A DNA stretch of 63,783 nt, filler included, from Methanobacteriota archaeon (GTDB lineage Archaea > JACRDV01), in NCBI GenBank assembly GCA_024860865.1. It is 5 parts of 5 records of this genome, joined end to end, with 100 filler letters (N's around TTAATTAATTAA, not from the genome) between each part and the next. Parts side by side here need not be neighbours in the genome. Positions count along the whole stretch, not along the records: positions 45,198 to 57,683 come from JACRDV010000085.1; 4 more parts are not named here. One strand, 5' to 3'. The notes under the pieces are model-generated. The model saw only the letters and a program-made list of their open reading frames with translations. It made no database searches and was not told the origin of the DNA. A program made the translations under genes and the position numbers. This document shows positions 4,121 through 61,040 of this stretch, piece by piece. Position 1 is the stretch's first letter, and the number at the start of each line of letters is the position of its first letter.

Positions 4121-6551
4121 ATCTCAAAGCCTCAACGGGTTTTAATCTAGATGCCTTCCAAGCCGGATAAAAACCAAAAACTACTGCAAGCACTATTGCA
4201 AAGATAAACCCGCCAATAATCAGTTGTATAGTAATAATTGGTCCAGTATAAATTTCACCCATCTCACTGCTAAATCCGCGTCCAAGTTCCCAAGCGCCAA
4301 CGTACCCAAGTACTATGCCTGTAATCCCTCCCAATATACCTATTAAAAGATTTTCTTGTATGAAAATTTTCATCACAAGCCACTCTGTGGCTCCAATGGC
4401 TTTTAGGATTCCTATTTCACGAGTGCGCTCCCAAACTGACATGCTCACAGAGTTTTGTATGCCAAGAGCTGCAACTAAAATCGCTAATGCTGCTATCGAA
4501 ATGAAAAAGTACCAAAACGTTTGTATTCCCTTTTTAACCTGGTCTAAAATTTGACCGAGATTTACTATGTCTGCTTTTTTACCCAAAGCTAATTTTAGTT
4601 TTTGAGAGGTCTCCTCTATTTTGTTAACATCTTTTACTTTAACATAAATTCCAGTGGCTTTCTCTTCTTTGCCTAAAATTTTTTGTGCGGTTTTTAGTGG
4701 AATCCAAACACTGCCTTTAATCTCGCCACCAGGAGGTCCAAACATAGCTTCTGTTGAAATTCCAATCACAGAAAATTCTTCAGTACCGGTAAATGTATCA
4801 ATTCGAATTCTATCACCAACATCTACTGTGAGAAGTTTTTCAGCCAATGTTTTACTCAATATTATGCTTCGATCATCAGTTGAAGTTAGAAATCTGCCCT
4901 TAATAATATTAACTTTCGCACCAACAGCTTGATAAGACTCCGGTTCAATCCCAAGCAAAACAACTTTAAAACCACTGATTGAAACTATCTGCCAGATATT
5001 TGGGGAGGTCTTTTCAATATTAGGCATTCTCTCGACGCCCTCAACAATAGATATAGGAAGTTCTCCAGACCCTCCTTGTGGTCCAGCCTGAGCTTTCGGA
5101 GACACTATTACGTCAGCTCCAATCATGCTTTTAATTTCATAAATTACATGCGATTGTACGAGCAATCCTAGTGACCAGATAGCAATCACTGATGCAATTC
5201 CAGCGCTTATACCTAACACAGTTAGAGTAGTTCGAAATTTTCTACGTGAAAGATTTCGAGCAGCAGTAGGAAAAAGCTTTAGAAGAATCTTTAGTGGATA
5301 GGCCAAAACTTCGAGGAAGCGCAAAAATAATCTATAAATTCTATTTCTATGTGGAGTTTCATAACTAGGTCTCAGCACTTCCAATGGCCGTACTTTTGAA
5401 GCTTTCCAAGAGGGATATAATCCGAAGAAGATTGAGAGAGCTAAACCAAGTCCAATTGCAACAGCCAGAGCTCTGTAGGAAAGCGCTATTGAAACTTGCA
5501 TAAAACCAAATGTTCGAGGCATAAGCTCCTCTATGGCTAATGTAAAACCAAAGCCAAGTAAAACTCCAAAAAAGCTCCCGAGAATTCCGATGATATTAGC
5601 CTCTATCAAAAATATTTTAATGATGGTTAATCCTCTTCCACCAATGGCTTTAAGAATAGCAATTTCTCGCAAGCGCTGTGTAACTGACATCATCAGCGTA
5701 TTTGATATTAAAAAGCCACCAACAATTATTGAAACAGCTGCGATTGAAACCATAAAAGTATTTAGCTGGCGAGTAATCTCTGCAATCGAAGTAAGTTGTT
5801 CCTTTGATGCCTCAATATTGACTTTATTGCCTAGCGAACGCTGAAGGCGATTCGTTGCTTCATCAACTTTCTCATGGTTCTTTATCTTCACTAAAACTCG
5901 AGTAATTTTGTCTTTTTTGTCAAACAGTTTTTGTGAAGTTTCAAGTGGTATATAACCCACATACCCAAAGTTAGTCACATCTTCGCAAAGCCCAATTACC
6001 AGAAATTCTTTGTCACCAGCAGACGTCGTGATTTTAATGCGATTCCCAACATCAGTGTTCAAATGATCTTTGCTTGCAACATTCTCTGATAAAACTATAC
6101 TAAAGGTATCAGTTGACTCTAAATCTCTTCCTTTGATTATTTTTAAAATACGCAATTTTCGAATTTCTTTAGGTTCAAGCCCTATTAACATAAAAGAAGT
6201 ATCTTTAATCCGAACAAATGTAGAGAACTCCGAGCTAACACCTTCAACATCTGGCAATTTTTCAATAGTAGTGGCTAAAGTTTGGGGTAAATCGCCACCA
6301 GTTGTACTTGAGATGAAAAGGTCAGCAATTATAACTTCTTTAACTTGTTTAGTAACCTCAGCCTGCATGCTTTCGCCAAACGATATCAAACTAAAAATGG
6401 CAGCAATACCGATAGCAATTCCAAGTACAGTTAAAGCCGTCCAAAATTTTCTTCGTAATAAATTACGAGCTGCTAAAGAAAAATATACCAAAATTTTTAC
6501 CTCTAAATAAAAAAAATACAAATTTAAACGCGAACTACTTTGATATCCCAA
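4113..6551 (-). CDS. ABC transporter permease, MacB/FtsX family, tandem two-module (true start probably a little downstream)
   Basis: Two RNL.RRK modules; REIAILKAIG and RTREIGILKAIG motifs. Confidence 0.9.
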   Translation of the reverse strand: MGYQSSSRLNLYFFYLEVKILVYFSLAARNLLRRKFWTALTVLGIAIGIAAIFSLISFGESMQAEVTKQVKEVIIADLFISSTTGGDLPQTLATTIEKLPDVEGVSSEFSTFVRIKDTSFMLIGLEPKEIRKLRILKIIKGRDLESTDTFSIVLSENVASKDHLNTDVGNRIKITTSAGDKEFLVIGLCEDVTNFGYVGYIPLETSQKLFDKKDKITRVLVKIKNHEKVDEATNRLQRSLGNKVNIEASKEQLTSIAEITRQLNTFMVSIAAVSIIVGGFLISNTLMMSVTQRLREIAILKAIGGRGLTIIKIFLIEANIIGILGSFFGVLLGFGFTLAIEELMPRTFGFMQVSIALSYRALAVAIGLGLALSIFFGLYPSWKASKVRPLEVLRPSYETPHRNRIYRLFLRFLEVLAYPLKILLKLFPTAARNLSRRKFRTTLTVLGISAGIASVIAIWSLGLLVQSHVIYEIKSMIGADVIVSPKAQAGPQGGSGELPISIVEGVERMPNIEKTSPNIWQIVSISGFKVVLLGIEPESYQAVGAKVNIIKGRFLTSTDDRSIILSKTLAEKLLTVDVGDRIRIDTFTGTEEFSVIGISTEAMFGPPGGEIKGSVWIPLKTAQKILGKEEKATGIYVKVKDVNKIEETSQKLKLALGKKADIVNLGQILDQVKKGIQTFWYFFISIAALAILVAALGIQNSVSMSVWERTREIGILKAIGATEWLVMKIFIQENLLIGILGGITGIVLGYVGAWELGRGFSSEMGEIYTGPIITIQLIIGGFIFAIVLAVVFGFYPAWKASRLKPVEALRYG

Positions 6552-16265: not shown

Positions 16266-16560
16266 TCCTTTGTGACCCAGCCCCTACTGCCATCTCCCGC
16301 AGTGAAAGTGCAAAGCGAGTATGGGCAGAGCAAGGCTTTTTCCTCTTGGGCTCGAAAAGAGACCAGTGTATGGTCTGTAAAGGAGCAACATTGAAAGATC
16401 CATAAGCATCGAAGCAGATCTCACCTTTGGCGACAGAGCGAACCCTGAAGTGGTGGATGTCCGATCCTTTAGCGTTGGAAGGAGACTAATCATTTCTATT
16501 GCGGAGGATGAGAGAGCTGTTCTTATTTTAAGGCACAGCAAAGCTCAGACGTGTTAGAAA
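16266..16560 (+). ncRNA. Structured RNA A, group II intron domain-I-like, ORF-less
   Basis: GC-enriched island; long-range stem 16291-16310/16491-16510; GCGA tetraloop hairpin; TATA box TTTATAGA ~16243; T-tract 16562-16567; loop AAAGGA complementary to TCCTTT preceding GTGAC. Confidence 0.6.
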
Positions 16561-28029: not shown

Positions 28030-28129
28030 NNNNNNNNNNNNNNNNNNNNNNNNNNNNNNNNNNNNNNNNNNNNTTAATTAATTAANNNNNNNNNNNNNNN
28101 NNNNNNNNNNNNNNNNNNNNNNNNNNNNN
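28030..28129. other. Artificial contig linker (N/TTAATTAATTAA/N)
   Basis: All-frame stop spacer. Confidence 0.99.
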
Positions 28130-28684: not shown

Positions 28685-31600
28685 ATGAAAGAAGTTAACA
28701 CTAATATTAAAACAACAGAAGAAATTCAAATCCCAAAGAAATTAATTGAGCAAGTTATAGGCCAAGACCAAGCAGTTGAGGTCATTAAGAAAGCTGCTGT
28801 ACAAAAGCGCCATGTGTTGCTAGTTGGGGAGCCCGGAACAGGAAAATCTATGCTTGGACTTGCGATGGCAGAATTGCTTCCAAAAGAAGAACTTCAAGAT
28901 ATTTTAGTGTATCCCGGCATTGAAGATAAGAATAACCCAGAAATCAAAGTTGTGCCAGCTGGTGAAGGCAAGCAGATAGTCTCAAAAGCTCGCTTCAGGT
29001 CAAAAGAAGGTGAGAGGAAAAAACATCTTTTTGGAACTTTGATTATTTTTGGCATTCTATTCCTCGGATTAGTGACTTGGGTTCAATCAAAATCTCCAAC
29101 TGGTTTTTTAGTAGCTATGTTAGTTGCTGTAATGGTTTTCATAGCACTTGGAACTATTCGAGTTAGAGAAGAAGTTGAATCCCCAAAACTTTTGGTTAGC
29201 AATCAACCTGATACTATCGCTCCATTCGTTGATGGAACGGGCGCTCATGCTGGGGCGCTTCTTGGAGATGTGAGGCACGATCCCTTCCAGTGTATTCCAG
29301 ATTATGAACAGGTTCAATTGCCAAACGGAAGGCCGATTAAAATTAGTAAACTATTGGATAGGTTTTTCGAGGATAAGCACCCCGAAGAAATAGAGTTACA
29401 TCCTAATCAGCAGTTCCAAGTACTGGCAGGCTTTGATGATAAGTTCGGATTTATAAAAGCAAATGTTGTAAAAGTATTCAGAAGATTTTATGATGGGGCA
29501 TTAATTGAACTCGAAACTAGGCGTGGTTATAAGATAAGGGTGACGCCTAACCATCCAATAGCGATTTTTAATGCTAACGGGACTGTGAAATATATTGAAG
29601 CAACACGAATTAAAAAAGGAATATTAAGTATTGTACCTTACAAGCTACCAATCGAAACTAAAGAAATATTGAATAAAGAAAAACTACTGCTCTATGCGGA
29701 CATACTGGCAGATGGTTACGTTGGTGAAAGAAGTGTAATCTTCAAGCTCAGACGGGAGTTTAAAATAAAATGGATTCTGACTCATATCCAAGCTTGCGGA
29801 CTTAAGCCGAATGTACTAGTCCGAAATAAAGATACACTTATCTATATTAATTCAGCAGAGTTTGTTAGAGAATTAAGCCGCATCGGACTGTTAGAAGATG
29901 GTAAGAAAAAAATACCCTCAATTATTTTTGACCAGCCTGCAAAGAATATCAAAACGTTCATAGCAGAATACTTTGCAATAGATGGATACGTTGGTAAGCA
30001 AGGTCAGTTTGAACTCATATCAAAAGAATTAATCAGCGATTTTGTATCACTCCTGCTCAAAATAGGCATAAAGGCTAAGGTAAGAGAAAGGATAGATAGA
30101 GGATTTGGAAAAGGAAAAATCCAGCCGGAACTTATTTTCTCCAATTATGAGTTTGCTAAATTTTACTACCCTACAACAATAAATCCATATCATAGACAGA
30201 ACTTGAGAAAGTATCTCAGAGAAACAAGAAGTACACATGTGACATATGATGATAACATACCACTCGGTTTTGATGTTTTAGAAAGATTGAGAGATGCAAT
30301 TGGACTAAGTAGGGCGCGAATACATAAAAGCTACTATGCTATGAATCCTAAGGTGGATACATATACCACCCCAACAAGAGGTTTGCTCCGGCATGTAGTT
30401 TCAGTTTTTCAACAACATTTGAATTGTTCTGAGTTTTATAAATTGAGAGACATCGTATATGGAAGTTATGGGTTTGATGAAATTGTTAACCTGCGTTTAG
30501 TTCGCTATAAGGGCTATGTGTATAACGTGACAACAACGACCGGGAACTACTTAGTAAATAATATTCTAACCCACAATTCCGGCGGACTCGAAACGCCAGC
30601 ACACGAGAGAGTTGAGGCAGGAGCGATCCATAGAGCGCACAAAGGAGTATTATTTATTGATGAGATAGCGACCCTTGGACCTAGGAGCCAACAAGAGTTA
30701 CTCACTGCAATGCAAGAGAAAGCATATCCGATCACTGGCCAAAGCGAGAGAAGTTCCGGTGCGATGACAAGAACAAAGCCAGTTCCATGCGACTTCATTT
30801 TGATAGCGGCAGGCAATCTACCAGTTGTAGAAAAAATGCATCCAGCTTTGAGATCTAGGATGCGCGGTTATGGTTATGAGGTTTATATGAATGACACTAT
30901 ACCTGATACTCCGGAAAACCAAGAGAAACTTGCTAGATTTGTTGCTCAAGAGGTAATTAAAGATGGCAAAATTCCCCACTTCGCTAAAGAAGCTGTAGAG
31001 GAGATAATTAGAGAGGCCAGGCGCAGGTCAGGTAGAAAAGGCCATCTAACCCTTAGGCTTAGAGACCTTGGTGGGCTGATTAGAGCAGCTGGAGATATTG
31101 CAAGGTCAAAGAGTGCCAAATATGTTGAACTTGAACATGTACTTGCTGCTAAAGATACTGCTAGGACTCTTGAGAAACAGCTTGCTGATAGATTCATTGA
31201 ACGCAAGAAGGAGTATCAAGTTTTTAAGACGGTTGGGGCTGAAGTTGGGAGAGTTAATGGATTAGCTGTAATTGGTCCAGATTCTGGTGTTATTCTTCCA
31301 ATAGTTGCAGAAGTGGCACCTGCTCTCAGCAGGGAAGAGGGAAGAGTAATTGCTACTGGCAAGCTCGGTGAAATTGCAAAAGAAGCTGTTCAAAATGTGA
31401 GCGCCTTGATTAAAAAATACACGGGTCAAAATATCAAAGACTATGATATTCATGTTCAATTTATCATGTCTCATGAGGGAGTTGAAGGTGACTCCGCTTC
31501 TATCTCAGTTGCTACAGCAGTCTTTTCAGCTTTAGAAGGAGTTCCAGTTGACCAAAGTGTTGCTATGACAGGTTCATTGAGCGTTCGCGGCGAGGTTCTG

Positions 31601-31873
31601 CCAGTGGGTGGAACTACTCCAAAAATAGAAGCTGCAGTTGAGGCGGGGATCAAAAAGGTTTTAGTGCCGAAGGCCAATGAAAAAGAAGTATTTCTTGAAG
31701 AAAAGAAAATAGGGAAAGTAGAGGTCATCCCAGTTGAAAGCATTACGGACGTTCTAGAGCATGCATTGGTTTGGAGGGATAAAAAAGACTTACTGGCTAA
31801 ACTCCGTGAATTGGCAGCTAAAACTATTCCTCGCATAGGCATTTTTGAAAGGGAAAAGCCAACACCGACATAG
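28685..31873 (+). CDS. lonB: Archaeal membrane-bound Lon protease with intein
   Basis: GEPGTGKS, TM insert, HDPFQ|intein|SGGL, FIDEI, GDSAS Ser and downstream Lys. Confidence 0.96.
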   Translation: MKEVNTNIKTTEEIQIPKKLIEQVIGQDQAVEVIKKAAVQKRHVLLVGEPGTGKSMLGLAMAELLPKEELQDILVYPGIEDKNNPEIKVVPAGEGKQIVSKARFRSKEGERKKHLFGTLIIFGILFLGLVTWVQSKSPTGFLVAMLVAVMVFIALGTIRVREEVESPKLLVSNQPDTIAPFVDGTGAHAGALLGDVRHDPFQCIPDYEQVQLPNGRPIKISKLLDRFFEDKHPEEIELHPNQQFQVLAGFDDKFGFIKANVVKVFRRFYDGALIELETRRGYKIRVTPNHPIAIFNANGTVKYIEATRIKKGILSIVPYKLPIETKEILNKEKLLLYADILADGYVGERSVIFKLRREFKIKWILTHIQACGLKPNVLVRNKDTLIYINSAEFVRELSRIGLLEDGKKKIPSIIFDQPAKNIKTFIAEYFAIDGYVGKQGQFELISKELISDFVSLLLKIGIKAKVRERIDRGFGKGKIQPELIFSNYEFAKFYYPTTINPYHRQNLRKYLRETRSTHVTYDDNIPLGFDVLERLRDAIGLSRARIHKSYYAMNPKVDTYTTPTRGLLRHVVSVFQQHLNCSEFYKLRDIVYGSYGFDEIVNLRLVRYKGYVYNVTTTTGNYLVNNILTHNSGGLETPAHERVEAGAIHRAHKGVLFIDEIATLGPRSQQELLTAMQEKAYPITGQSERSSGAMTRTKPVPCDFILIAAGNLPVVEKMHPALRSRMRGYGYEVYMNDTIPDTPENQEKLARFVAQEVIKDGKIPHFAKEAVEEIIREARRRSGRKGHLTLRLRDLGGLIRAAGDIARSKSAKYVELEHVLAAKDTARTLEKQLADRFIERKKEYQVFKTVGAEVGRVNGLAVIGPDSGVILPIVAEVAPALSREEGRVIATGKLGEIAKEAVQNVSALIKKYTGQNIKDYDIHVQFIMSHEGVEGDSASISVATAVFSALEGVPVDQSVAMTGSLSVRGEVLPVGGTTPKIEAAVEAGIKKVLVPKANEKEVFLEEKKIGKVEVIPVESITDVLEHALVWRDKKDLLAKLRELAAKTIPRIGIFEREKPTPT
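29291..30577 (+). mobile_element. Intein (429 aa) with LAGLIDADG homing endonuclease
   Basis: Starts CIPD, block B VTPNHPI, LAGLIDADG-like YADILADG and AEYFAIDG, ends VYNVTT..NNILTHN before Ser. Confidence 0.95.
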
Positions 31874-42639: not shown

Positions 42640-42852
42640 ACCTTGGGGATTCTGTTGCAAAATAGGCGCTTGAGCGCCAGCAGCTTCTCCTCTTTTGCTC
42701 CTGCCCTTGTTTAAGGGAGCAATCAAAGCTACATTCGAGGAGCGATCCAGCCTGAACCGCAGGCTTTCATTTTGAGTTTTCAAAATATTTAGAGCTGCAT
42801 TTAAATGGCGATTAATTCCGCAACACTCTAAGATTTGAACTTTCGAAAGCAT
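42640..42852 (-). mobile_element. IS200/IS605/IS607-type TnpB 3' remnant with structured right end
   Basis: CCGINRHLNAALNIL resembles C..CG..DRD.NAA.NI; followed by GC-rich hairpins (AGCCTGCGGTTCAGGCT, GGCGCTCAAGCGCC). Confidence 0.7.
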
Positions 42853-45097: not shown

Positions 45098-45197
45098 NNN
45101 NNNNNNNNNNNNNNNNNNNNNNNNNNNNNNNNNNNNNNNNNTTAATTAATTAANNNNNNNNNNNNNNNNNNNNNNNNNNNNNNNNNNNNNNNNNNNN
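45098..45197. other. Artificial contig linker
   Basis: N/TTAATTAATTAA/N. Confidence 0.99.
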
Positions 45198-45544
45198 AAC
45201 CGTTTTTTCATTTTAGGAACTGGAATTCCTAATTGTTGTAGTCCAACAATTTTAATTGAGCGCTTTTGGTTTTTAAACCAATTTTGGATGACTATACCAT
45301 TAGTCTCAAAATATTTTAAATAATTAGATACTGTCATTGCATTAATCCCTGTTTTTCTGGCAATTTCGTTTACTCCGCATTTTCCATCACATGCCTCATA
45401 AACTAGCAATTTTTCTTGTGTATCTAAAATTTTAGGTATTGCTTCTTTAAGCTGATTGTAGCTGAGGAAATGAAGATAATTGCTTATTTTTTGGAGATAT
45501 TCCAAAAATAATTTATTAAATTCGTTTTCTTGATTTCCTTCCAT
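45198..45544 (-). CDS. wHTH protein, 3'-truncated by contig start
   Basis: VYEACDGKCGVNEIARKTGINAMTVSNYLK. Confidence 0.7.
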
Positions 45545-45845
45545 TCAAATCTCTCACTCATTTTTTCTAGTTTTTAATAAAAATTTCAATTAGTTTTTAA
45601 AAATTAATTTCCAAATTTTGAAACCATTTTTATACATAACATACACAATATCTTTTATGTTTATGTTCATAATTAATTTTTCTTTTCTATAATTTTTGAT
45701 TTTTTTGAATCTAATTTAAATAATAAGTCAAATTAATATTATAAAGAAAAAATATTATATTAATCTATATAATAATTTTATAAAATACTTTTATAAAATA
45801 CATTTTTATTTCAATATTCTATTCTTCTATTCTCATTTTTAGTTA

Positions 45846-46152
45846 GTAGTGGTGACAAAAAGGTTTGACTTTTGACGAAATAGAATAATTTTAAAGAGAG
45901 AATTTCACCGGTCAAATAGCAGATAGAATAGTGGTAACTAGTAGAAGCACGATACAGCCCAAGAGGTAGGGTGTCCCTAGCAACAAGGGACCCCAAAGCA
46001 GCTCTCAGCCCGAAGCAAAAGCAAACTCGTGGTAGCTTTAGCTAATGGCGACCTGCCACTACCGCAGGGAAGTCCAATGCAATAAAACAAGATGACATAG
46101 AGGATTAGCTAGGGTTTAGAGTCGGAACGAGAGAGGACTAAGCTACTATCGT
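45846..46152 (+). ncRNA. Structured RNA B, group IIC intron domain-I-like, ORF-less
   Basis: Multiple stems with plus-strand G-U pairs; hairpin loop CACTAC (46057-62) complementary to GTAGTG (45846-51) directly before GTGAC. Confidence 0.62.
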
Positions 46153-46187
46153 AATTAATAATTAAGATTAGAATTCAAAGAAAAAAA

Positions 46188-46280
46188 TGGTGGGGCCGTC
46201 GAGATTTGAACTCGAGTCTGCCGGTTTCTATGAAAAATCACCCGAGCCGGCAAGGATAGACCAAGCTACCCCACGGCCCC
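46188..46280 (-). tRNA. tRNA-Pro(CGG) with 15-nt intron at 37/38 (46226-46240), CCA encoded
   Basis: GGGGCCG acceptor stem, GCCGG/CCGGC anticodon stem, TTCAAAT T-loop. Confidence 0.95.
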
Positions 46281-46392
46281 TTTTAATCGACAAATGTCGA
46301 ATTACACTTCGAAATATATTTATAGGATTTTTTAGTATCATATGTCAGCTTTTATTCTTTTGATTAATTTATTTATCACTTCTGGGATTTAT

Positions 46393-47100
46393 ATGGGCGA
46401 ATCTTTCATTGAAAGGTTGAAGGAAAAAATGGCAGGAGAAATCGTGCTTTCATTAGACTTTGGAAAGACTCTTCGAAAATGGCGAGAGCTATTTGGAGTA
46501 AGCCAATCTGAATTAGCAAAAAAGTTGAGAGTCTCGCCTTCAGTTATTTCTGATTATGAAGCTCAAAGAAGAAAGTCACCAGGAATATCCTTAGTTAGGA
46601 AAATCATTGAAGCTTTGATTAAAATTGACCAAGAGAAAGGAGGGTCTGTTTTACAGTCTTTGCGTGGCACGACTCTAGAGCATTACTCGAGCGCAATTAT
46701 CGATATGAAGGAATTTTTGATTCCAGTTCGAGCAAAGGAAATTTGTAATGCCTTAAAAAGTGAAGTTGTTGCAAATACTCACTTACTTGAACAAAATGTT
46801 TATGGATATACTGTTGTTGATAGCATCAAAGCCATCCTTGAACTTTCAACTTATGAATTTATTAGAATTTATGGAATAACCTCAAAGCGCGCTCTAATTT
46901 TTACTGGAGTTAGCGTTGGGCGTTCTCCTATGGTTGCTATTAGAGTTACTAATATTAAACCAAGCTTGGTTGTTTTACACGGAACTGATCATGTCGATCA
47001 ATTAGGAATCAAACTAGCTGAGGTCGATAAAATTCCATTAGCAATCTGCAAGTTGCCAAAAGTTGAAAGTATTGTAGAAAACCTTAGGAGGTTTGCTTAA
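46393..47100 (+). CDS. XRE-HTH transcriptional regulator (archaeal, mevalonate-cluster associated)
   Basis: [43 protein letters not shown]. Confidence 0.85.
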
Positions 47101-48155
47101 TGAAAATAGGTATAGTTGGTTATGGCGTATATATCCCCCACTACCGTATCAAAGTTGAAGAAATTGCTCGAGTATGGGGAAAAAATCCAGAAGCGATAAA
47201 AGATGGATTGCTTATTGAGGAAAAAGCAGTGCCAGGACCAGATGAAGATACTATAACAATCTCTGTTGAAGCAGCTCGATATGCAGTCGCGAGAGCTGGG
47301 ATAGATCCAACTGAAATTGGAGCAATTTATGTAGGATCTGAATCTCATCCATATTCAGTCAAGCCATCTGCAACTACTGTTGCCGAAGCAATCGGAGCAA
47401 CTCCTGCATTAACTGCTGCTGACTATGAATTTGCCTGTAAAGCTGGAACTGCTGCAATTCAGACTTGCATGGGTTTGGTTGGAGCAAAATTGGTCAAATA
47501 TGGAGTTGCAATTGGAGCAGATGTTTCACAAGGTGCTCCGGGAGATGAGCTTGAGTACACTACAGCCGCAGGAGGAGCTGCTTATATCATTGGAGCTGGT
47601 GATAGTTTAATCGCTAATTTTGAAGGATTTTTTTCATTTACAACAGATACTCCAGACTTTTGGAGAAGGGATGGACAACCATATCCAAGGCACGGCGGAA
47701 GATTTACTGGCAAACCAGCTTATTTTAAGCACACAATTTCTGCTGCAAAAGGCTTGATGGAAAAACTTGGAACAACTCCAAAGGATTACAACTACATCGT
47801 GCTTCACCAGCCAAATGGAAAGTTTCCGATTAGAGCAGCTTCAGAACTTGGCTTTAATATGGATCAAATCAAAACAGGGTTGCTATGCCCAAAAATCGGG
47901 AACACTTATTCCGGTTCTTCATTGATTGGATTCGCAAATGTTTTAGATAAAGCAAAACCAGGTGAGAAAATTTTATTAGTTTCATTCGGTTCTGGAGCGG
48001 GCAGCGATGCTTTCAGTGTAGTAGTTGATGATTCAATAGATCAAAAAAGAAACAAGGCGCCCCTCGTTTCGCATTTCCTAAATCCGTGCGTTTATATTGA
48101 TTATGCAATTTACGCAAAATATAAACAAAAGTTTAAGGTGGCCACACTTCCATGA
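47100..48155 (+). CDS. Hydroxymethylglutaryl-CoA synthase
   Basis: [30 protein letters not shown]. Confidence 0.95.
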
Positions 48156-49318
48156 GAGATGTTGCAGTAATCGGGGTTGGCTGCACAAAATTTGATGAGC
48201 TTTGGGATACTGCACTAAGGCAATTAATTGTTGATGCAGGCCGCAAAGCCATTGAGGATGCAGGCATAACTGGTGAAGAAATCGATGCATTGTATATTGG
48301 AAATATGTCAGCCGGTAGATTTGTTGACCAAGAGCACATTGCTTCATTAATATCTGATTATGCCGGCTTGGCAGCAAGTTTTCACACTCCAGCTACTAGA
48401 GTTGAATCCGCTTGTGCATCTGGTGGGGTTGCATTCAGACAGGCCGTAATGGCGATTGCTTCAGGCCTTCATGATATAGTCATTGCAGCTGGAGTCGAAA
48501 AAATGACTGATGTATTGCCAAGTGAAACTACTTTTACTCTTGCAACAGCAGCAGACCAAGAGTGGGAAACCTTCTTTGGAGCAACTTTTCCAAGTTTATA
48601 TGCGATGATGGCTCGCCGGCATATGCATGATTTTGGCACAACAAGGGAACAACTTGCAATGGTGGCAGTAAAAAATCATAAAAATGGTTGTAAAAATCCA
48701 AATGCACAGTTCCAAAAAGAGATTACTATTCAAGATGTATTAGAGTCTCCCATAGTTGCTGATCCTTTAAGGTTGCTTGATTGCTCCCCAATAACTGATG
48801 GCGCAGCAGTTACAGTACTTTGTTCAGCAGATATTGCTAAAAGATATACCGATACTCCTGTTTATGTTGTTGGGTCCGGACATGCTACTGATACTATTGC
48901 TCTTCATGATCGTATTAGCCTGACAACTCTGTATGCTGCAGTTTTTGCTGCACGAAGAGCCTATCAAATGGCCAAGATCGAGCCTAAAGATATTAATGTA
49001 GCAGAAGTGCATGACTGTTTTACAATTGCTGAAATACTTGCAATTGAAGACCTAGGATTTGTTAAAAAAGGAGAAGGGGGAAAAGCCACTGAAGAAGGAC
49101 TAACTGCGATCGGTGGCAAAATTCCGGTAAATCCTAGTGGTGGACTGAAAGCAGCAGGTCATCCGGTTGGAGCAACAGGCATAAAACAAATTGTCGAAAT
49201 TGTGTACCAACTTAGAGAAGAAGCAAATGGCAGACAAGTTAAGGGAGCAGAAATTGGGTTGGCCCATAATGTCGGTGGTTCTGGGGGTTCAGCTGTAATT
49301 CACATTTTAAAGAGGTAG
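48152..49318 (+). CDS. Acetoacetyl-CoA thiolase (archaeal)
   Basis: [26 protein letters not shown]. Confidence 0.95.
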
Positions 49319-49322
49319 AAAT

Positions 49323-49721
49323 ATGGCAGCGGCAGCAAGATTTTGGCGAAAAATTCCGCAGCGGTATAACTTGATTGGCACTAAGTGCAGCGCATGCAAT
49401 AAAGTCTATTTCCCTCCGAGGTACATTTGCCCAGTTTGCAGAAGAGCTGGTAAGATTGAAGAGTTTAAATTAGATGGGAAAGGAGAGTTGGTAACATATG
49501 CAGTAATTTACATCGCTCCTAGAGGATTTGAAAGTCAAGCCCCGTATATAATTGGAATTGTTGAACTTGATGGTGGAGCAAGAGTTACAACTCAAATTGT
49601 TGATTGTGACCCGAAGGATGTTGAAATTGGGATGCCAGTTAAAGCGGTATTTAGGAAAGTAAACGAAGATGGTGAAAGCGGAGTAATTTATTACGGTTAC
49701 AAATTTACTCCAATGAGATGA
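49323..49721 (+). CDS. DUF35 Zn-ribbon/OB-fold scaffold protein
   Basis: CSACNKVYFPPRYICPVC, YGYKF. Confidence 0.93.
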   Translation: MAAAARFWRKIPQRYNLIGTKCSACNKVYFPPRYICPVCRRAGKIEEFKLDGKGELVTYAVIYIAPRGFESQAPYIIGIVELDGGARVTTQIVDCDPKDVEIGMPVKAVFRKVNEDGESGVIYYGYKFTPMR

Positions 49722-49939
49722 CTTAGTATTATTCATGTAGCTTGAATTAATTTTTACCATCTAAGCCTCGCATGGGCAAAGAATTAAAAAGTTTAAAGCT
49801 TTTTTAGGTTAAAATTAAGCTAAATTTTTCTTGCGCTTTTGCAATTAAATATTTCTTAACTACTCTACTAATTCTGCATATATCAAAGCGTTCTTTAGCA
49901 TTATAATAAGTACTGGTAAAAAGGTAAAATATAATATAT

Positions 49940-50092
49940 ATGAAACGAATACTGGTGAGTCCTCTAGGTGGAGCATGGAAGATTATAGAAAAGAAACTAA
50001 AAGGAAAACTTGGCGATAAAGAATTGGAGTTGGTTAGAAACATTGTTATTGCTTACCTCTCTGAAAAGGGCTACTTTGAGGAAGAAAAATAA
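49940..50092 (+). CDS. Small ribbon-helix-helix (CopG-like) protein, 50 aa
   Basis: MKRILVSPLGGAWKIIEKKLKGKLGDKELELVRNIVIAYLSEKGY; own translation. Confidence 0.65.
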   Translation: MKRILVSPLGGAWKIIEKKLKGKLGDKELELVRNIVIAYLSEKGYFEEEK

Positions 50093-50100
50093 GCGGTAAA

Positions 50101-50283
50101 ATGACTGATGATAAAAGAGAGACCAAAGAATTGAAAGAGGATGTAGAGACCCTCGAAAATATGTTCTCTGCACTAGTAGATATTTTAGAAAAGAAAACAC
50201 TCATTTCCGATAAAGAATTAGATGACCAGGTAAAGAAAAGACTTAAAGAAGGAAAGAAATTTAAGAAATTTGAAGATCTTTGA
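50101..50283 (+). CDS. Small hypothetical protein paired with RHH gene
   Basis: 60-aa ORF ending at attC-like site. Confidence 0.6.
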   Translation: MTDDKRETKELKEDVETLENMFSALVDILEKKTLISDKELDDQVKKRLKEGKKFKKFEDL

Positions 50284-50365
50284 TTAACGTCGTCTGCGGA
50301 TAAACGAAGTTGTGCCGAAGGCACAATTTGGGTGAGTGTAGCGAACCGCATACCCGCTGCTAAGT
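50282..50365 (-). repeat. attC-like site 1
   Basis: Minus strand ACTTAGC...GTTAATC, imperfect palindrome with internal TTCG hairpins. Confidence 0.65.
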
Positions 50366-50416
50366 GACCCCGATAGGGGCAAGGCGCGAAGCACCGCAGA
50401 GTGCCCGCCGCCTAGA

Positions 50417-50782
50417 TTATTTGTTATCGTATTTGACTCCCCTGTCCAATTCTGAGAGAACCTCTTTGATTTTTTCTTTCAACTCCGGAACTTTGTTCTT
50501 AACAATATCCCACAGAATATCAACATCCATGCCAAAATATGCGTGGATAAGAATATCTCTTAACCCAGCGATCTTTTTCCACTCTACTTCCGGTTTTTTA
50601 CTCTTAACATCATCAGGGATATTTTTTACAGACTCTCCTATGATTTCTAGGTTTCTCACAACTCCGTCTTGAATTAGTTCGTCCTTTACAAATTGTTCAA
50701 AAGTAATATTTTCTGTATATCTTTCAATCTTACGTATTGCTTCAAGAATGTCTTTGAGATATGCTCTATGCTCCCGTGGCAT
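50417..50782 (-). CDS. HEPN (DUF86/HepT) toxin
   Basis: YLKDILEAI, RNLEIIGES, GLRDILIHAYF (RX4H). Confidence 0.9.
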   Translation of the reverse strand: MPREHRAYLKDILEAIRKIERYTENITFEQFVKDELIQDGVVRNLEIIGESVKNIPDDVKSKKPEVEWKKIAGLRDILIHAYFGMDVDILWDIVKNKVPELKEKIKEVLSELDRGVKYDNK

Positions 50783-51068
50783 ACCTCGCACTCCCAACAA
50801 CATGTGGTTTCAAATCAGGTTTCAAAGCTTCAACAATTACAAGATCTACTTTGCAATTGAGTAAATCTTCTAAAAAGAATTTGAGGTCCATATAATTGTC
50901 AAAGGTCTTTCCACCCTTCTCAAATTCTATCAGAATATCTACATCACTTTCTATTTTTTGCTCGCCTCTGACATATGAGCCAAATAACCCTATCTTTTTA
51001 ACTCCGAATCTCTTAATTTTATCCATGTTTTCCTCAATTTTTCTCAATATGTCGTCGGACATTAACAT
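50766..51068 (-). CDS. Minimal nucleotidyltransferase (MntA) antitoxin
   Basis: LFGSYVRGEQKIESDVDILI. Confidence 0.9.
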   Translation of the reverse strand: MLMSDDILRKIEENMDKIKRFGVKKIGLFGSYVRGEQKIESDVDILIEFEKGGKTFDNYMDLKFFLEDLLNCKVDLVIVEALKPDLKPHVVGSARYATGA

Positions 51069-51108
51069 TCTTTACACCTCACTTATTATTGGCGGCGCGG
51101 ACATTTCA

Positions 51109-51199
51109 ACTTAACGTATGCGATTTAACGAAGTCGTGCGAAGCATGATTTGGGTGGAGAAACCTACAAGGTTTCGGAACCGTTAAATCGCTGTTAGTT
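51109..51199 (-). repeat. attC-like site 2
   Basis: Minus strand AACTAAC AGCGATTTAA...TTAAATCGC ATAC GTTAAGT. Confidence 0.7.
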
Positions 51200-51334
51200 T
51201 CCCCCGAATACTTGGAGGGGTTGGATTTTAGTGCAACGTTCCGAAGGAAAAATCCAAAGTCGTGAGGGTGCCGAAAATTTTTTGTTGCCGTAGTTTTTTC
51301 TTAATTGATATAAAATAACTGCCGGTATAACAAG

Positions 51335-51554
51335 AGAACAATACAGCAGATTATCAAGCAGGCTTCGGGAAATGCGGAATTAAGAAGAATGTAACCCCAC
51401 ATACATTGAGACATAGTTTTGCTACCCATTTGCTGGAATCTGGAGCGGATATAAGGTATATCCAGCAATTGCTGAGACACAAAGATGTGAAAACTACACA
51501 AATCTATACACATATAGCAAATAAAGACTAAAAAAGCTGGCAAACCTGTTCTAA
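51335..51554 (+). pseudogene. Tyrosine recombinase (IntI/Xer-like) C-terminal remnant
   Basis: [46 protein letters not shown]; frameshift and premature stop. Confidence 0.85.
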
Positions 51555-51731
51555 CTTTTTGAGAAATTTATAATCCAAGAAGAATTATACCAACAATAAG
51601 TTAACAGAACCTCATTTCCCTAGCCTTATATACGAGCAAAGAATTAAAAAGTTTAAATATCTTTTTAAACTGCTCTTCTATATAACTGATTTCTCCTTTA
51701 ACAATTTTATCTAAAATTTCTTCATAAAAAC

Positions 51732-53143
<1,412 letters not shown>

Positions 53144-53383
53144 TCAATTTTTATAAAATTTAGTATTCGATAAGCCTATTAACTTTTTGGGTGGCAATAT
53201 AATAATCCTAAATTTATCCCTACTTATGCCCAAAAAACCTGAAACAACTCAGAGGAAAGTATAGACTTAAACATTCCATAGAAAAAACGGAAGAGTTACA
53301 AGAAAAGCAAGTTAGGCAAAGAACTTGAGAGTAATTCTGCCTTTAAAAAATTGGGCAATAACCTTTAAATAAGTGAGTACGAA

Positions 53384-54148
53384 CTAAATTTTCCTTGCAA
53401 AAGTTAAGTACCCAGTATGCCCAACCATTCTTGTCTTGGGGCGTGTACCCCTTTTTGTTACTTCAATTTCGCGTGTTAAGCATTCTATAGTTTTTATTTC
53501 TTGGAGAGAGTATCGATGTAAAGCCTCATTAACTTTTTGCACTTGCTCAATAAAAGGAGAGTAAATAACAACATAGCCCCCAGCTTTTAAAGCAGATTTA
53601 GCATGTTCTATTACTTTTTCAGGACTGGATAGATCAAGTGTAATTAAATCAACTTCATTCTCTTCAAATCCTTGGGTTACGTCTTTATTTTTAACAGTAA
53701 TAATATGGTTCAAACCAACTAGCTCAATATTTCTTTTTGCAATTTCTATAAATTCAGACTTAATCTCATAAGTAATAACTTTTCCATTTGGTTGAACTAA
53801 GTAGCCAAGATATATTGCTAAAGCTCCAGACCCAGTGCCAGCATCTAAGATAAAATCACCAGGTCCAACCCCGGTTCCAGCAACAATTTGTCCAACATCT
53901 TTCGATAGAACAATCGTTCCGGGGCGCTCAATTTTAGATATTAGATCAGAAATTCTTGGCTTTATTATTTTAAAGGTTCTACCGAGATGAGATTGAATTT
54001 CCTCACCGTAGTCTTTTTTTAAGAGTTCGCTAAGTCTAATTTTACCAAAATCAGTGTGAAATTCTTTAGCAGGGTCAACTCTTACTAGATACTTTTTTGA
54101 TCGTTGATCAAATAGCAAAACTACTTCGCCGAGTTTCAGGAAGCCCAC
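53384..54148 (-). CDS. trmI: tRNA (adenine-57/58-N1)-methyltransferase
   Basis: DAGTGSGAL, LDL, TRP..RMVGHTGYL. Confidence 0.92.
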   Translation of the reverse strand: MGFLKLGEVVLLFDQRSKKYLVRVDPAKEFHTDFGKIRLSELLKKDYGEEIQSHLGRTFKIIKPRISDLISKIERPGTIVLSKDVGQIVAGTGVGPGDFILDAGTGSGALAIYLGYLVQPNGKVITYEIKSEFIEIAKRNIELVGLNHIITVKNKDVTQGFEENEVDLITLDLSSPEKVIEHAKSALKAGGYVVIYSPFIEQVQKVNEALHRYSLQEIKTIECLTREIEVTKRGTRPKTRMVGHTGYLTFARKI

Positions 54149-54402
54149 CTGTAAAACAGCATAAAAGTCACCACTATCAAAATTATAGCCAAACCTAGGA
54201 CTACTGCGAGGGACTTGGTGTCAGTCCCAAAGCCAATAGGAATTGGCCCGATTAATATAACCCCTCCTCCTCGAACTTGGGTTTCTTTGGTTTTTGCGCT
54301 TTCAAGCATCCCAAACAAAATACCAACAAAAATAAGCAAAAATCCAATAATAATTACAGCAAGTCCGAGCAAAATCAATAGACTCGCCTTCACTTGATAC
54401 AC
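54136..54402 (-). CDS. DUF131/TIGR00304 membrane protein
   Basis: RGGGVILIGPIPIGFGTD. Confidence 0.85.
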   Translation of the reverse strand: MYQVKASLLILLGLAVIIIGFLLIFVGILFGMLESAKTKETQVRGGGVILIGPIPIGFGTDTKSLAVVLGLAIILIVVTFMLFYRWAS

Positions 54403-54462
54403 CTCATAAATTTATTATACAAGCGCGGTATTTAAGTATCCAGCGCGTCTTGGTGCTTTCTT

Positions 54463-55350
54463 ATGATCGATATAAAGCCTATTGACCTAAAGAAGTTAAT
54501 AGTTATCCCTATTGTAATTTTAATACTTTCAGTAGTTTCTATTTTCTACTTAGGGGTAGATAGAGGCATTGATTTTGAAGGGGGCACCCTTGCTGTCATT
54601 AAATTGAATACACAAATTGACACGTCTGCTATTGAATCAAAGTTTAAAGATACTCTAAAAACTTCAGATATAAAAGTTCTTAGTGCAGGTGAAGATAAAG
54701 CATTTGTTGAAATCGCGCGACTAGAAGTTAGTGAAGAAAAGATTAATGAAATTTTAGGTGAAATAGGCAAAGCCGAATCCACTAAGCGAGTCGGAGCAAC
54801 TATTAGCGAAAAATTTTGGGGACAGGCGATTAGAGCCTTAATAATTGGTTATGTGTTAATGGCTCTTGTTGTTTTAATTGCCTTTAGAACTATAGTTCCA
54901 TCCTTTGCTGTTATGCTTTGCGCTTTCTCTGACATAGTTGTGGCTCTCGGAGGAATGGCTCTATTTAATATTCCTCTTTCGCTGGCCTCGATAGCAGCTC
55001 TGTTAATGTTGATTGGTTATTCTGTTGATACTGATATTTTATTAACAACTCGAATTGTAAAAACCAAAATTGGAACTTTTGATGAGCGAATGGGTGCTGC
55101 AATGAAAACTGGATTAACAATGACATTTACTGCAATTGCTGCGGTTGGAATGCTTTATATTTTTTCTTCTACAAGTTCACTAGCTTATTATCTTGGAACG
55201 ACTCCATCAACTGAGCTCAGCCAAATCACATCTGTTTTGATTATTGGGTTAGCAGGAGATATACCGAATACTTGGATTCAAAATACTTACATCTTAAAGA
55301 TGTATTTAGAGCGCATTGAGCGCAAAATACCGAGGAAGAAAAAGAAATGA
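54463..55350 (+). CDS. secF: Protein translocase subunit SecF
   Basis: GIDFEGGT, IGYSVDTDILLTTR. Confidence 0.95.
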   Translation: MIDIKPIDLKKLIVIPIVILILSVVSIFYLGVDRGIDFEGGTLAVIKLNTQIDTSAIESKFKDTLKTSDIKVLSAGEDKAFVEIARLEVSEEKINEILGEIGKAESTKRVGATISEKFWGQAIRALIIGYVLMALVVLIAFRTIVPSFAVMLCAFSDIVVALGGMALFNIPLSLASIAALLMLIGYSVDTDILLTTRIVKTKIGTFDERMGAAMKTGLTMTFTAIAAVGMLYIFSSTSSLAYYLGTTPSTELSQITSVLIIGLAGDIPNTWIQNTYILKMYLERIERKIPRKKKK

Positions 55351-56573
55351 AGCGAGAAATTTTACTTTTGGTTATTGCACTATTGGTTTCCGTTGCAGCA
55401 ATGGGTTATCGATATGCTGAGTGGGGTTCGCCTGTAAAAACGGGATTAGACATTCAAGGCGGAACTAAAGTTATTTTAAAACTAGAAAAACAAGTTGCAA
55501 TTGAAGAAATGGAAACTATTAGGAGCATTTTGCAAACCAGATTGAACTCATATGGATTAAAGGATATTAAAGTTAGAGCTTGGGGTGACCAATTCGTTAG
55601 CGTTGATATTGCTGGAGCAACTCCTGAAGAAGCAGAAGGGATAATTGGAAAGCCAGGCAAACTAGAAGTTAAAATGAAAAATATAACAGCTTTTACTGGA
55701 GGTGAACTCAAAGCTGTTTATGCACCGACAATTGAGGCTTTCCCAACAAGAACATGGGGAATCCCGTTCACACTTAATGATGAAGGCGCAAAAAAATTCA
55801 TGGAGGTTGCAGTTGAGACAAAGGCTACTGACAATCGATCAATTCCAGTTGATATGTACTTGGACGATAAGCTCGTGAATAGCGCTCCAATTTCTCCGGA
55901 ATTGGGACAAGATCTTGAACGTGGAACGCAACAAAGAGAACTTGTGATAACTACAGGTGGCGTAGATGAAGCTGCAAAAAAAGAGGCTTACCGAATATAC
56001 GCAATTCTTCGATCAGGTTCACTTCCAGTGAAAATAGAAATTGTAAGTATCAGTGGAGTTTCACCTTTCCTTGGCAGACAATTTGTTAGGGTGGCAGGGT
56101 TGGCAGGCATAGCCGCAATCATTGTAATTACATTAATTATTTTTGTTCGGTATCGTAGGCCAAAGATAACATGGCCAATTATGTTTACCTGTTTAAGCGA
56201 GGCTATAATTATTCTTGGTGTAGCAGCGATCATTAAGTGGGATATCGACTTGCCTTCAATCGCTGGTATACTCGCTGCAATTGGAACTGGAGTTGATAAT
56301 CAAATAGTTATAACAGACGAAGTTTTGAGAGGAAAAATTGAAGAGAAACGGCTCAGCATGCGAGCTAGAATTGAACGTGCACTTTTTATAATTTTTACTT
56401 CAGCAGCTACAATTATAGTTGCAATGTTGCCGCTAGCTTTCCTAGCAATGGGGGCTATAAGTGGATTTGCTGTGACCACAATTATCGGCGTAATCGTTGG
56501 GGTATTTATAACCCGACCAGCTTATGCCCAAATTATAAGGCAACTTCTTGAAATGGAAGCTAGTGAAGCCTGA
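55347..56573 (+). CDS. secD: Protein translocase subunit SecD
   Basis: GLDIQGGT, LRSGSLP, IGTGVDNQIVITDE. Confidence 0.95.
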   Translation: MKREILLLVIALLVSVAAMGYRYAEWGSPVKTGLDIQGGTKVILKLEKQVAIEEMETIRSILQTRLNSYGLKDIKVRAWGDQFVSVDIAGATPEEAEGIIGKPGKLEVKMKNITAFTGGELKAVYAPTIEAFPTRTWGIPFTLNDEGAKKFMEVAVETKATDNRSIPVDMYLDDKLVNSAPISPELGQDLERGTQQRELVITTGGVDEAAKKEAYRIYAILRSGSLPVKIEIVSISGVSPFLGRQFVRVAGLAGIAAIIVITLIIFVRYRRPKITWPIMFTCLSEAIIILGVAAIIKWDIDLPSIAGILAAIGTGVDNQIVITDEVLRGKIEEKRLSMRARIERALFIIFTSAATIIVAMLPLAFLAMGAISGFAVTTIIGVIVGVFITRPAYAQIIRQLLEMEASEA

Positions 56574-57683
56574 GGATATGGAATTCAGAAAAACGAGCCT
56601 TGGAATTATTCTTCGTGACTTAGGTTCAACGCTCTTATTACTTCCAATTTCTTTCATAGTACCAATTGTTATAGCGATTATATACAAAGAATTTGATCTG
56701 ACCATAATATTTTTGATTCCAGCAATTATTGTTTTTATAGTTGGATATGCTTTTAAAAGATTTTTTTATAGTGAAGAGCCAGCTAGGCTTAGACATGCTA
56801 TGGCAGTTTCAGCGTTGTTATATTTCTTTGCCATGCTTTTTGGCGCTATTCCATTAGCCTTCTGGCAAATGTCATATATGGATGCTTGTTTTGAAGCAAT
56901 GTCAGGTTGGAGTACAACCGGTTTAACCATGATGCTCAAACCAGAACTTGCCCCGAGATCAATTCTATTTTACAGGAGCTTTATTCAATGGGTAGGTGGA
57001 GCTGGTATAATTGTTTTGATGTTAACTATTTTATCACGGCCAGGATTGACAACATTTGCTCTTTATAGAGCAGAAGCTAGAGAGGAAAGAATTAGACCCA
57101 GTATTTTTGGAACTGCGCGAACAATATGGTGGATTTATCTAATTTTCACTGGACTTAGCATATTGCTATTCTGGATGGCTGGCATGTCGATTTTTGATTC
57201 AATCAACCATGCTATGACTGGAATTGCAACAGCTGGGTTCTCCACACATGGCGCAAGCATTGGAGCTTATAATAACCAACTTGTAGAGATAGTGGCTATA
57301 ATCATAATGTGTTTAGGCGCTATTAACTTTGGGGTTCATTATAGAGCAATAACAAGATCTCCTTCAGAATATCTACATGATCCAGAAACAATTAGTTTAT
57401 TAGTAATTATTTTAGGGTTCATTCCTCTGATATTTTTTGGTACCTTTAAGATTTTTGGTAATATCTCAGAAACTTTTCGTCATTCACTTTTTCAAGCTTT
57501 TTCATGTTTAACAACTACTGGTTTCCAATCAACTGATTTAAAAAATTGGGGAGATTTTTCAAAAGTTGTGATGGGCACTTTAATGGTAATAGGGGCATCA
57601 ACAGGGTCCACATGTGGTGGAATAAAATTAATGCGCGTAATTGTGCTAGCAATAGTTACTAGATGGCAAGTAACTAGAATTCT
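56548..57683 (+). CDS. trkH: Trk potassium uptake permease, partial
   Basis: FEAMSGWSTTGL, QWVGGAGI, ATAGFS, GSTCGGIK. Confidence 0.92.
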
Positions 57684-57783
57684 NNNNNNNNNNNNNNNNN
57701 NNNNNNNNNNNNNNNNNNNNNNNNNNNTTAATTAATTAANNNNNNNNNNNNNNNNNNNNNNNNNNNNNNNNNNNNNNNNNNNN
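57684..57783. other. Artificial contig linker
   Basis: N/TTAATTAATTAA/N. Confidence 0.99.
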
Positions 57784-60690: not shown

Positions 60691-60790
60691 NNNNNNNNNN
60701 NNNNNNNNNNNNNNNNNNNNNNNNNNNNNNNNNNTTAATTAATTAANNNNNNNNNNNNNNNNNNNNNNNNNNNNNNNNNNNNNNNNNNNN
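60691..60790. other. Artificial contig linker
   Basis: N/TTAATTAATTAA/N. Confidence 0.99.
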
Positions 60791-60960
60791 CCATTTAGTG
60801 TTAATGAATTAGAGACTCTTCTCACCAAGTATCGTCTAAGGAATGTGAGGGTAAGACCGTTAAAACATTGGGTTATTGGAGTGTGTGAAAAGTGAATTTA
60901 ATTTGCGGGCTTCGGGCAACTCTGCGGACACTTCGTGTCCTTGCCTCGCTTTGCTCGGTC

Positions 60961-61040
60961 ACTTAACAGCGGATAAAAGGCTTCGCTACGCTTCGCCTAA
61001 ATTGCCTTCGGCAACTTCTTTTATCCGCAATCCGTTATAC
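60961..61040 (+). repeat. attC-like site 3
   Basis: ACTTAAC AGCGGATAAAA...TTTTATCCGC AATCC GTTATAC; homologous to site 1 including upstream hairpin arm 60905-60960. Confidence 0.7.

Follow-up and report, generated by a model that had tools for sequence, protein, structure and literature searches.

A G+C-rich region with several predicted stems lies beside a gene for tRNA-Pro(CGG) in the archaeal DNA analyzed here (referred to as the window, i.e. the whole stretch of 63,783 nucleotides). An earlier note on this DNA had proposed that it encodes an RNA resembling domain I of group II introns. The locus thus raises two questions: whether the region is indeed derived from such an intron and, if so, whether it is the remnant of a mobile element or an RNA retained in its own right.

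Setting and predicted fold of the structured region

The window is a chain of separate contigs joined by linkers (44 N, TTAATTAATTAA and another 44 N) at four places (28030–28129, 45098–45197, 57684–57783 and 60691–60790), so that gene order across the linkers is meaningless. The structured region is located in the contig spanning positions 45198–57683. On one side, approximately 300 nt of very A+T-rich DNA separate it from a winged-helix ORF, and the intergenic stretch 45545–45851 has a G+C content of 16–27%. On the other side, position 46152 is 36 nt away from the tRNA-Pro(CGG) gene, beyond which lies an archaeal HTH/HMG-CoA synthase/thiolase/DUF35-type operon (the HMG-CoA synthase, HMGCS, is 70% identical to its best relative among the matches listed from species genomes). 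Near-identical DNA was found in four public runs from three studies, one of which is labeled as groundwater. The features discussed below are as follows.

45146–45544, minus strand: winged-helix ORF
45846–45851, plus strand: IBS1-like hexamer GTAGTG, complement of loop 46057–46062
45850–45854/45905–45909, plus strand: local stem GGTGA/TCACC in the 5′ portion
45852–45927, plus strand: A+T-rich 5′ portion of 76 nt, starting with GTGAC, at the position occupied by 5′ domain I in relatives; no detectable homology
45863–45868/45911–45916, plus strand: local stem TTTGAC/GTCAAA
45928–45935/46142–46149, plus strand: closing helix of the core, ATAGTGGT/GCTACTAT, 8 pairs
45962–46005, plus strand: hairpin arm (AGAG/CTCT, GGG/CCC, GTCCCT/AGGGAC) holding the family-invariant GGGTGTC
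45969–45978/45986–45994, plus strand: stem GGG-GTCCCT/AGGGAC-CCC
46006–46034, plus strand: joining stretch CAGCCCGAAGCAAAAGCAAAC..GTGGTA, nearly invariant in the family alignment
46037–46046/46104–46113, plus strand: stem TTTAGCTAAT/ATTAGCTAGG, within a 12-bp helix (46035–46046/46104–46115)
46052–46068, plus strand: EBS1-type hairpin CCTGC-CACTACC-GCAGG, loop CACTACC at 46057–46063; variable among relatives
46069–46079, plus strand: GAAGTCCAATG, following the EBS1-type hairpin; conserved in the family alignment
46116–46125, plus strand: TTAGAGTCGG; conserved in the family alignment
46188–46280, minus strand: tRNA-Pro(CGG) gene with encoded CCA and a 15-nt intron at approximately 46226–46240; it bounds the element and is not part of it

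The tRNA gene was missed by ARAGORN, and in Rfam it was matched solely by the tmRNA model; in contigs of other organisms, exactly 15 nt are missing at position 46226, within this gene. A tRNA-Pro(CGG) gene occupies the same place before the HTH-HMGCS operon at loci L003, L008, L020 and L028, and at least three loci with this gene order (L003, L008 and L020) are in genomes of one phylum represented by 38 genomes. In two other loci, an archaeal SRP RNA gene is located just upstream of the HTH-HMGCS operon (L004, positions 2721–3034, Methanoperedens; L017, positions 4504–4815, Methanocellales).

The flank between the element and the tRNA gene differs among related contigs. Contigs of runs X3 and X4 match the element up to position 46185 and then run into unrelated sequence, which indicates that the flank has been rearranged among strains, and a 7-nt tandem repeat, TAATTAA (46152–46165), has one unit fewer in contigs of runs X1, X2 and X3. 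The change at around 46185 may mark the edge of an element integrated at the tRNA gene.

All of the stems named in the earlier note are present in the sequence at the places claimed. The region forms a G+C island (0.447 for 45901–46200, compared to 0.160 for 45601–45900), with a value of 0.49 for the core. Folding of the single sequence gave a plus-strand structure weakly better than those of shuffled sequences (z = −1.64; 7 of 100 shuffles were as good) and a minus-strand structure no better than shuffles (z = −0.05). The reality of these predicted stems rests on the relatives described below rather than on folding energy.

The RNA sense is apparent from strain variants. In contigs of other runs, C>T changes at 45977 and 45991 convert G-C pairs of GTCCCT/AGGGAC to G.U, three substitutions in the 12-bp helix (46037 T>C, 46040 A>G and 46044 A>G) keep its pairs, and so does 45930 A>G in the closing helix, whose end pair is broken by 45928 A>C. 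The same transitions would all produce mismatches on the minus strand, pointing to the plus strand as the RNA sense and agreeing with the strand preference proposed earlier. A further variant, T>C at 46073, fits a pairing of GGC (46047–46049) with GTC (46072–46074). Contigs of high depth, from other organisms or copies, span the joining stretch 46006–46034.

Homologues, covariation and group II identity

A covariance model made from positions 45926–46152 alone (R1; 38 pairs taken from the stems) gave a single full-length match in 61 genomes of one phylum, G207:C6:1291–1521 (38.5 bits, E 5.6e-7; the E-values of models of the R1 and R2 type are rough). Two other covariance model matches, in G187 (16.8 bits, E 0.099, from the same 61-genome search with R1) and in G184 (26.9 bits, located in an apparent open frame), were judged spurious. 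A second model (R2) combined our sequence with that of G207. It found matches in two of 151 sampled genomes from the phylum of Methanosarcina sp. UBA5 (G045:C115, 93.3 bits, and G319, with six matches of 84.2–67.5 bits) and in one of 151 sampled genomes from the phylum of Thermoplasmatales SG8-52-3 (G499:C8, 51.2 bits), and none in sets of 38, another 151 sampled, 6 and 5 genomes; these searches are of samples, with stricter filters above 40 genomes.

The DNA around several of these matches contains other parts of group II introns. The G045 match is followed by an ORF with an RVT_1 domain (E 5.2e-29), and downstream of the G499 match, whose element begins with GTGCG approximately 110 nt before the core, lies a reverse transcriptase (RT) ORF 52.7% identical to the RT of G045 and 36% identical to a plasmid LtrA. 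In four of the six G319 copies a canonical domain 5 (D5) hairpin is present approximately 610–760 nt after the start of the core, with no RT within 1.5 kb, which identifies these four as ORF-less introns; a strict scan found no D5 in two of the copies, L118 and L119. Two of the six G319 copies (L121 and L122) have an A+T-rich hairpin of approximately 45 nt inserted in, or replacing, the first hairpin of the core.

At low score, a bacterial intron was matched as well. The intron on the IncC plasmid of Enterobacter cloacae (NZ_KR559890.1; L112) is complete: it contains ltrA, its D5 has a CGC triad, and it lies immediately behind a terminator-like hairpin. Placement after such a hairpin and a CGC triad are habits of class C introns; the D5 hairpins of the archaeal relatives have an AGC triad, in contrast to the CGC of the plasmid intron. 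With filters off, R2 aligned over domain I of the latter (L112 2977–3192; 16.6 bits, E 5.4e-4 in 15 kb), and the same domain I, upstream of ltrA, was matched by the Rfam model group-II-D1D4-3 with 149.9 bits. In addition, over 46 nt the G207 copy shares 81% identity with a segment of the IncC plasmid located 350 nt upstream of ltrA.

A profile HMM built from the cores of seven homologues, with our copy left out, matched positions 45962–46080 (43.3 bits, E 3.5e-13) and nowhere else in the window. Based on the covariance model and HMM matches, the adjoining RT ORFs and D5 hairpins and the plasmid domain I, the stretch almost certainly derives from domain I of a group II intron, and the claim of a domain-I-like RNA is borne out. 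The RT-encoding elements of G045 and G499 and the six ORF-less copies of G319 have the same core helices as our copy and share with it the invariant stretches GGGTGTC, CAGCC-CGAAGCAAAAGC-AAC, GTGGT, G-CGA, GAAGT-C-ATG, ATAGAGG and TTAG-GTCGG. Our copy lacks the extra hairpin of approximately 35 nt that follows GAAGT-C-ATG in the archaeal relatives.

Covariation was examined in an alignment of 12 model-fitted rows; two rows partially duplicate the two G319:C28 copies, and a third is the bacterial plasmid intron. Both sides had changed at 24 of the 38 pairs, and 86.9% of the cells were paired; none of 500 shuffles reached this, and slid controls gave 6–11 pairs. All eight pairs of the closing helix vary on both sides, as do 10 of 12 pairs of the 12-bp helix, where 97.2% of the cells are paired. 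RNAalifold, applied to the same alignment, independently recovered the 12-bp helix together with four pairs of the closing helix. A comparison of our copy with that of G207 alone showed changes on both sides at 16 of the 38 pairs, with 94.7% of the cells paired. A covariance model search of archaeal genomes, of the kind advised in the earlier note, yielded both homologues and covariation.

In the Rfam scan, our copy had no group II match even at E ≤ 10, nor did it match RNase P or SRP RNA, which the earlier note had named as families that would speak against its proposal. Nothing in the window reached the gathering score, and near the site the only match at E ≤ 10 was the tRNA. The Rfam D1-D4 models, silent on our copy at this threshold, gave 19 bits on that of G207. 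Searches with the primary sequence were likewise uninformative. Neither BLAST nor nhmmer found a homologue in 80 loci around relatives of HMGCS; BLAST in sets of 5, 61, 38 and 66 genomes recovered nothing beyond matches to the tRNA or the HTH gene and chance matches; scanning metagenome contigs with a 20-mer produced two matches, both in coding DNA and due to chance; comparison of our sequence with plasmids gave one trivial match; and no second copy was detected in the window by blastn or covariance model.

A divergent RNase P RNA or SRP RNA missed by Rfam might be thought of, given short motifs like the archaeal RNase P consensus (RF00373), e.g. GGGAAGTCC and TTAGAGTCGG, and the SRP RNA near the same operon in L004 and L017. 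Neither RF00373 nor RF01857 matched the site even at E ≤ 10. The order of the motifs is unlike the RNase P topology, and a close strain varies at the would-be P4; moreover, a separate RNase P RNA is present in G207, on a different contig (69.3 bits, E 2.9e-19), and the present family is multi-copy (six in G319) and flanked by RT genes and D5. As for SRP RNA, the stretch has no helix 8 motif and no model match; the genuine SRP RNAs at L004 and L017 reach 202 bits. RNase P RNA is thus excluded, and SRP RNA is hardly credible.

One further intron was noted on another G207 contig. Positions 1128–1578 of L109 (G207:C41) form a compact ORF-less group II intron of approximately 450 nt near a DDE transposase gene; its D5/D6 reach 43.7 bits on RF00029. 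This intron is not matched by R1 and is therefore no relative of the domain I family described here.

The putative 5′ junction and the absent domains

Detectable homology is confined to the core, 45928–46149, which is closed by the helix 45928–45935/46142–46149. In full-length relatives, 85–110 nt of domain I lie before the core, and behind it come the remainder of domain I and D2/D3-like sequence common to G045, G319, G207 and G499; our copy lacks all of these parts, and it has neither the RT ORF of G045 and G499 nor the downstream D5 of the G319 copies. No match at the locus was obtained with an HMM of the 110 nt that precede the core in seven homologues (best match in the window E 0.77, elsewhere) or with one of the 340 nt downstream of the homologue cores (E 0.46, elsewhere). 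With the tRNA-Pro gene 36 nt downstream, there is no room for the remainder of domain I, domains 2–6 and an RT.

The catalytic parts were sought throughout the window. A tblastn search with two RTs gave a best E-value of 0.16, and two custom D5 scans, which between them recovered the controls (L109, L114 and L115 in one scan, L112 in the other), found nothing convincing. RF00029 had no match in the window at the gathering score, which is weak evidence since at this score the model also failed to report the D5/D6 of the plasmid intron (L112 4746–4810, CGC triad). The absence of D5/D6 and RT, remarked on in the earlier note, thus holds for the window. Only the core 45928–46149 has the features of domain I; domains 2–4, a D5 triad, domain 6 and an RT are absent from the locus.

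Upstream of the core, nucleotides 46057–46062 of the EBS1-type loop are, as had been claimed, the exact complement of GTAGTG at 45846–45851 (6 of 6), and GTGAC follows directly at 45852. Among 200,000 mononucleotide shuffles of 45800–45927, the fraction with a 6-mer match was 0.041, and the fraction in which GTG came directly after the match was 0.00025. The consensus for the 5′ end of a group II intron is GUGYG. GTGAC lies 76 nt from the core, a distance similar to that in relatives, which start with GTGCA approximately 93 nt (G207) or GTGCG approximately 110 nt (G499) before the core; the plasmid intron also starts with GTGCG. The complementarity together with GTG, and the similar distance, favor a real old 5′ junction, and judged from the sequence it is plausible that GTGAC at 45852 is the former 5′ splice junction. 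It is also plausible that this string arose as a local repeat of the closing helix: TAGTGGTGAC (45847–45856) is a 9/10 direct repeat of TAGTGGTAAC (45929–45938), which overlaps the 5′ strand of that helix. This repeat counts against the junction, as do the unalignable 76 nt and the relatives G207, G319 and G499, in which no matching pairing of loop and flank was found by eye.

The position of the hexamer directly before GTGAC, and the truncation at a domain I boundary, are also what would be expected if a trans-splicing group II intron had been split, with the 5′ exon and domain I encoded here and the remainder and the 3′ exon elsewhere. However, no plus-strand ORF or gene that could serve as the 5′ exon lies upstream, the neighboring ORF being on the other strand, and no partner was seen in the window. 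We consider such an arrangement very improbable.

Probable relic, possible retained module and comparison with fragmented introns

The stretch is rather likely to be a 3′-truncated relic of a mobile group II intron, presumably inert. According to this interpretation, the central scaffold of domain I with its EBS1-type hairpin (45928–46149) would remain, together with the A+T-rich 5′ portion of 76 nt starting with GTGAC and an upstream hexamer able to pair with the EBS1-type loop, whereas the rest of domain I, domains 2–4, the catalytic domain 5, domain 6 and the RT would have been lost. Having no domain 5, such a stretch could neither splice nor move. A relic agrees with the lack of catalytic parts and of a terminator of its own, with the sporadic and mobile character of the family (six copies in the single genome G319; a homologue in 1 of 61 genomes and in 0 of 38, 0 of 151 and 0 of 6), with the change of flank after 46185 in contigs of runs X3 and X4, and with the frequent truncations described for group II introns (PMC4028801).

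Several observations sit less easily with a relic. The core is intact, with a high G+C content (0.49), whereas the 5′ portion is rich in A+T and cannot be aligned. Such a contrast is not what uniform neutral decay would produce; it could reflect selection on the core or a parent intron that was already so composed. The 6/6 complementarity of loop and hexamer, followed by GTG, is preserved as well. In retrohoming, abortive reverse transcription starts at the 3′ end and should therefore lose the 5′ part of the intron, so that a surviving 5′ piece needs a later deletion. G207 likewise keeps just a 5′ piece (D1 to D3-like, with no D5 found in 9 kb). It should also be borne in mind that the search for partners covered 64 kb of the genome, with the silence of RF00029 carrying little weight.

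These observations lead to the converse reading, in which a stand-alone domain I has been retained under selection, either acting with a D5-bearing RNA in trans or serving, by means of its EBS1-type loop, as an exon-binding or decoy RNA. Consistent with it, all 38 modeled pairs are standard in our copy (the model was built from this copy, and the helices were confirmed in relatives), the core has a G+C content of 0.49 compared to 0.16 in the preceding bin, the limits of homology coincide exactly with the two strands of the closing helix, the complementarity of loop and hexamer is intact, and three of four strain substitutions in stems retain pairing as G.U. On the other hand, pairing would survive three of three transitions by chance with a probability of about 1 in 8, one substitution (45928 A>C) disrupts a pair, and the plus strand has no oligo-T terminator before the tRNA gene. 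Furthermore, no second core-only copy was found, since all other homologues carry more of the intron, and the window contains no D5 or RT. On balance we regard retention under selection as unlikely, though not negligible; the specific proposition that the P1-closed core is a selected free-standing module (a trans-acting scaffold used with a separate domain 5 RNA, or an exon-binding RNA) appears distinctly doubtful. The truncated relic remains our preferred explanation.

A close parallel to our copy is that of G207 (C6:1198–~1700), which is also 3′-truncated, with a homologous core, no RT within 9 kb and no D5 found. Unlike our copy, it has a recognizable 5′ part starting with GTGCA and D2/D3-like sequence, and no complementarity of loop and flank was found in it. 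More distant parallels are provided by fragmented or rearranged introns. In the tripartite psaA intron, a trans-splicing organellar intron, domain I is encoded apart from domain 5. Circularly permuted group II introns are described in bacteria (PMC8637638). In both cases, as in our copy, domain I stands apart from domain 5, but fragmented introns have partner pieces and exons, whereas here no partner, exon or upstream D5 was found in the window.

As a relic the locus would be ordinary, truncated group II introns being common. It nevertheless represents a lineage of archaeal group II introns that the model built here detects in three archaeal phyla and whose domain I is missed by the Rfam D1-D4 models, and it is one of two 5′ pieces (with that of G207) that survive without catalytic parts. 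If the core were under selection, it would provide a natural example, in a prokaryote, of a group II ribozyme that has been fragmented or domesticated, with a bearing on the origin of spliceosomal RNA from pieces of introns.

A second RNA in the window, referred to as RNA A, had been implied to be related to the one described here. Its probable location is a G+C-rich intergenic stretch on the plus strand.

16270–16560, plus strand: probable RNA A, starting with GTGAC

No match between the two was obtained by MAFFT, R2 or the HMM, so that they are not detectably related. For RNA A, the Rfam scan at E ≤ 10 gave a 12-bit snoRNA-like match alone, and the z-score of its fold was approximately 0. 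A hairpin within it (approximately 16364–16393) resembles SRP helix 8, with a 6-bp stem, an AUGG/AGCA internal loop, a 3-bp stem and a GUAA loop.

Two more intergenic G+C peaks, at 42640–42770 and 60900–61030 (0.54 and 0.56 per 100 nt, respectively), had no Rfam match at the gathering score; the second contains long inverted repeats, as seen by eye. Elsewhere in the window, a LonB protease gene (28685–31873, plus strand) is split by an intein (NCBIfam intein_Nterm), the LonB match being divided over 1062 aa.
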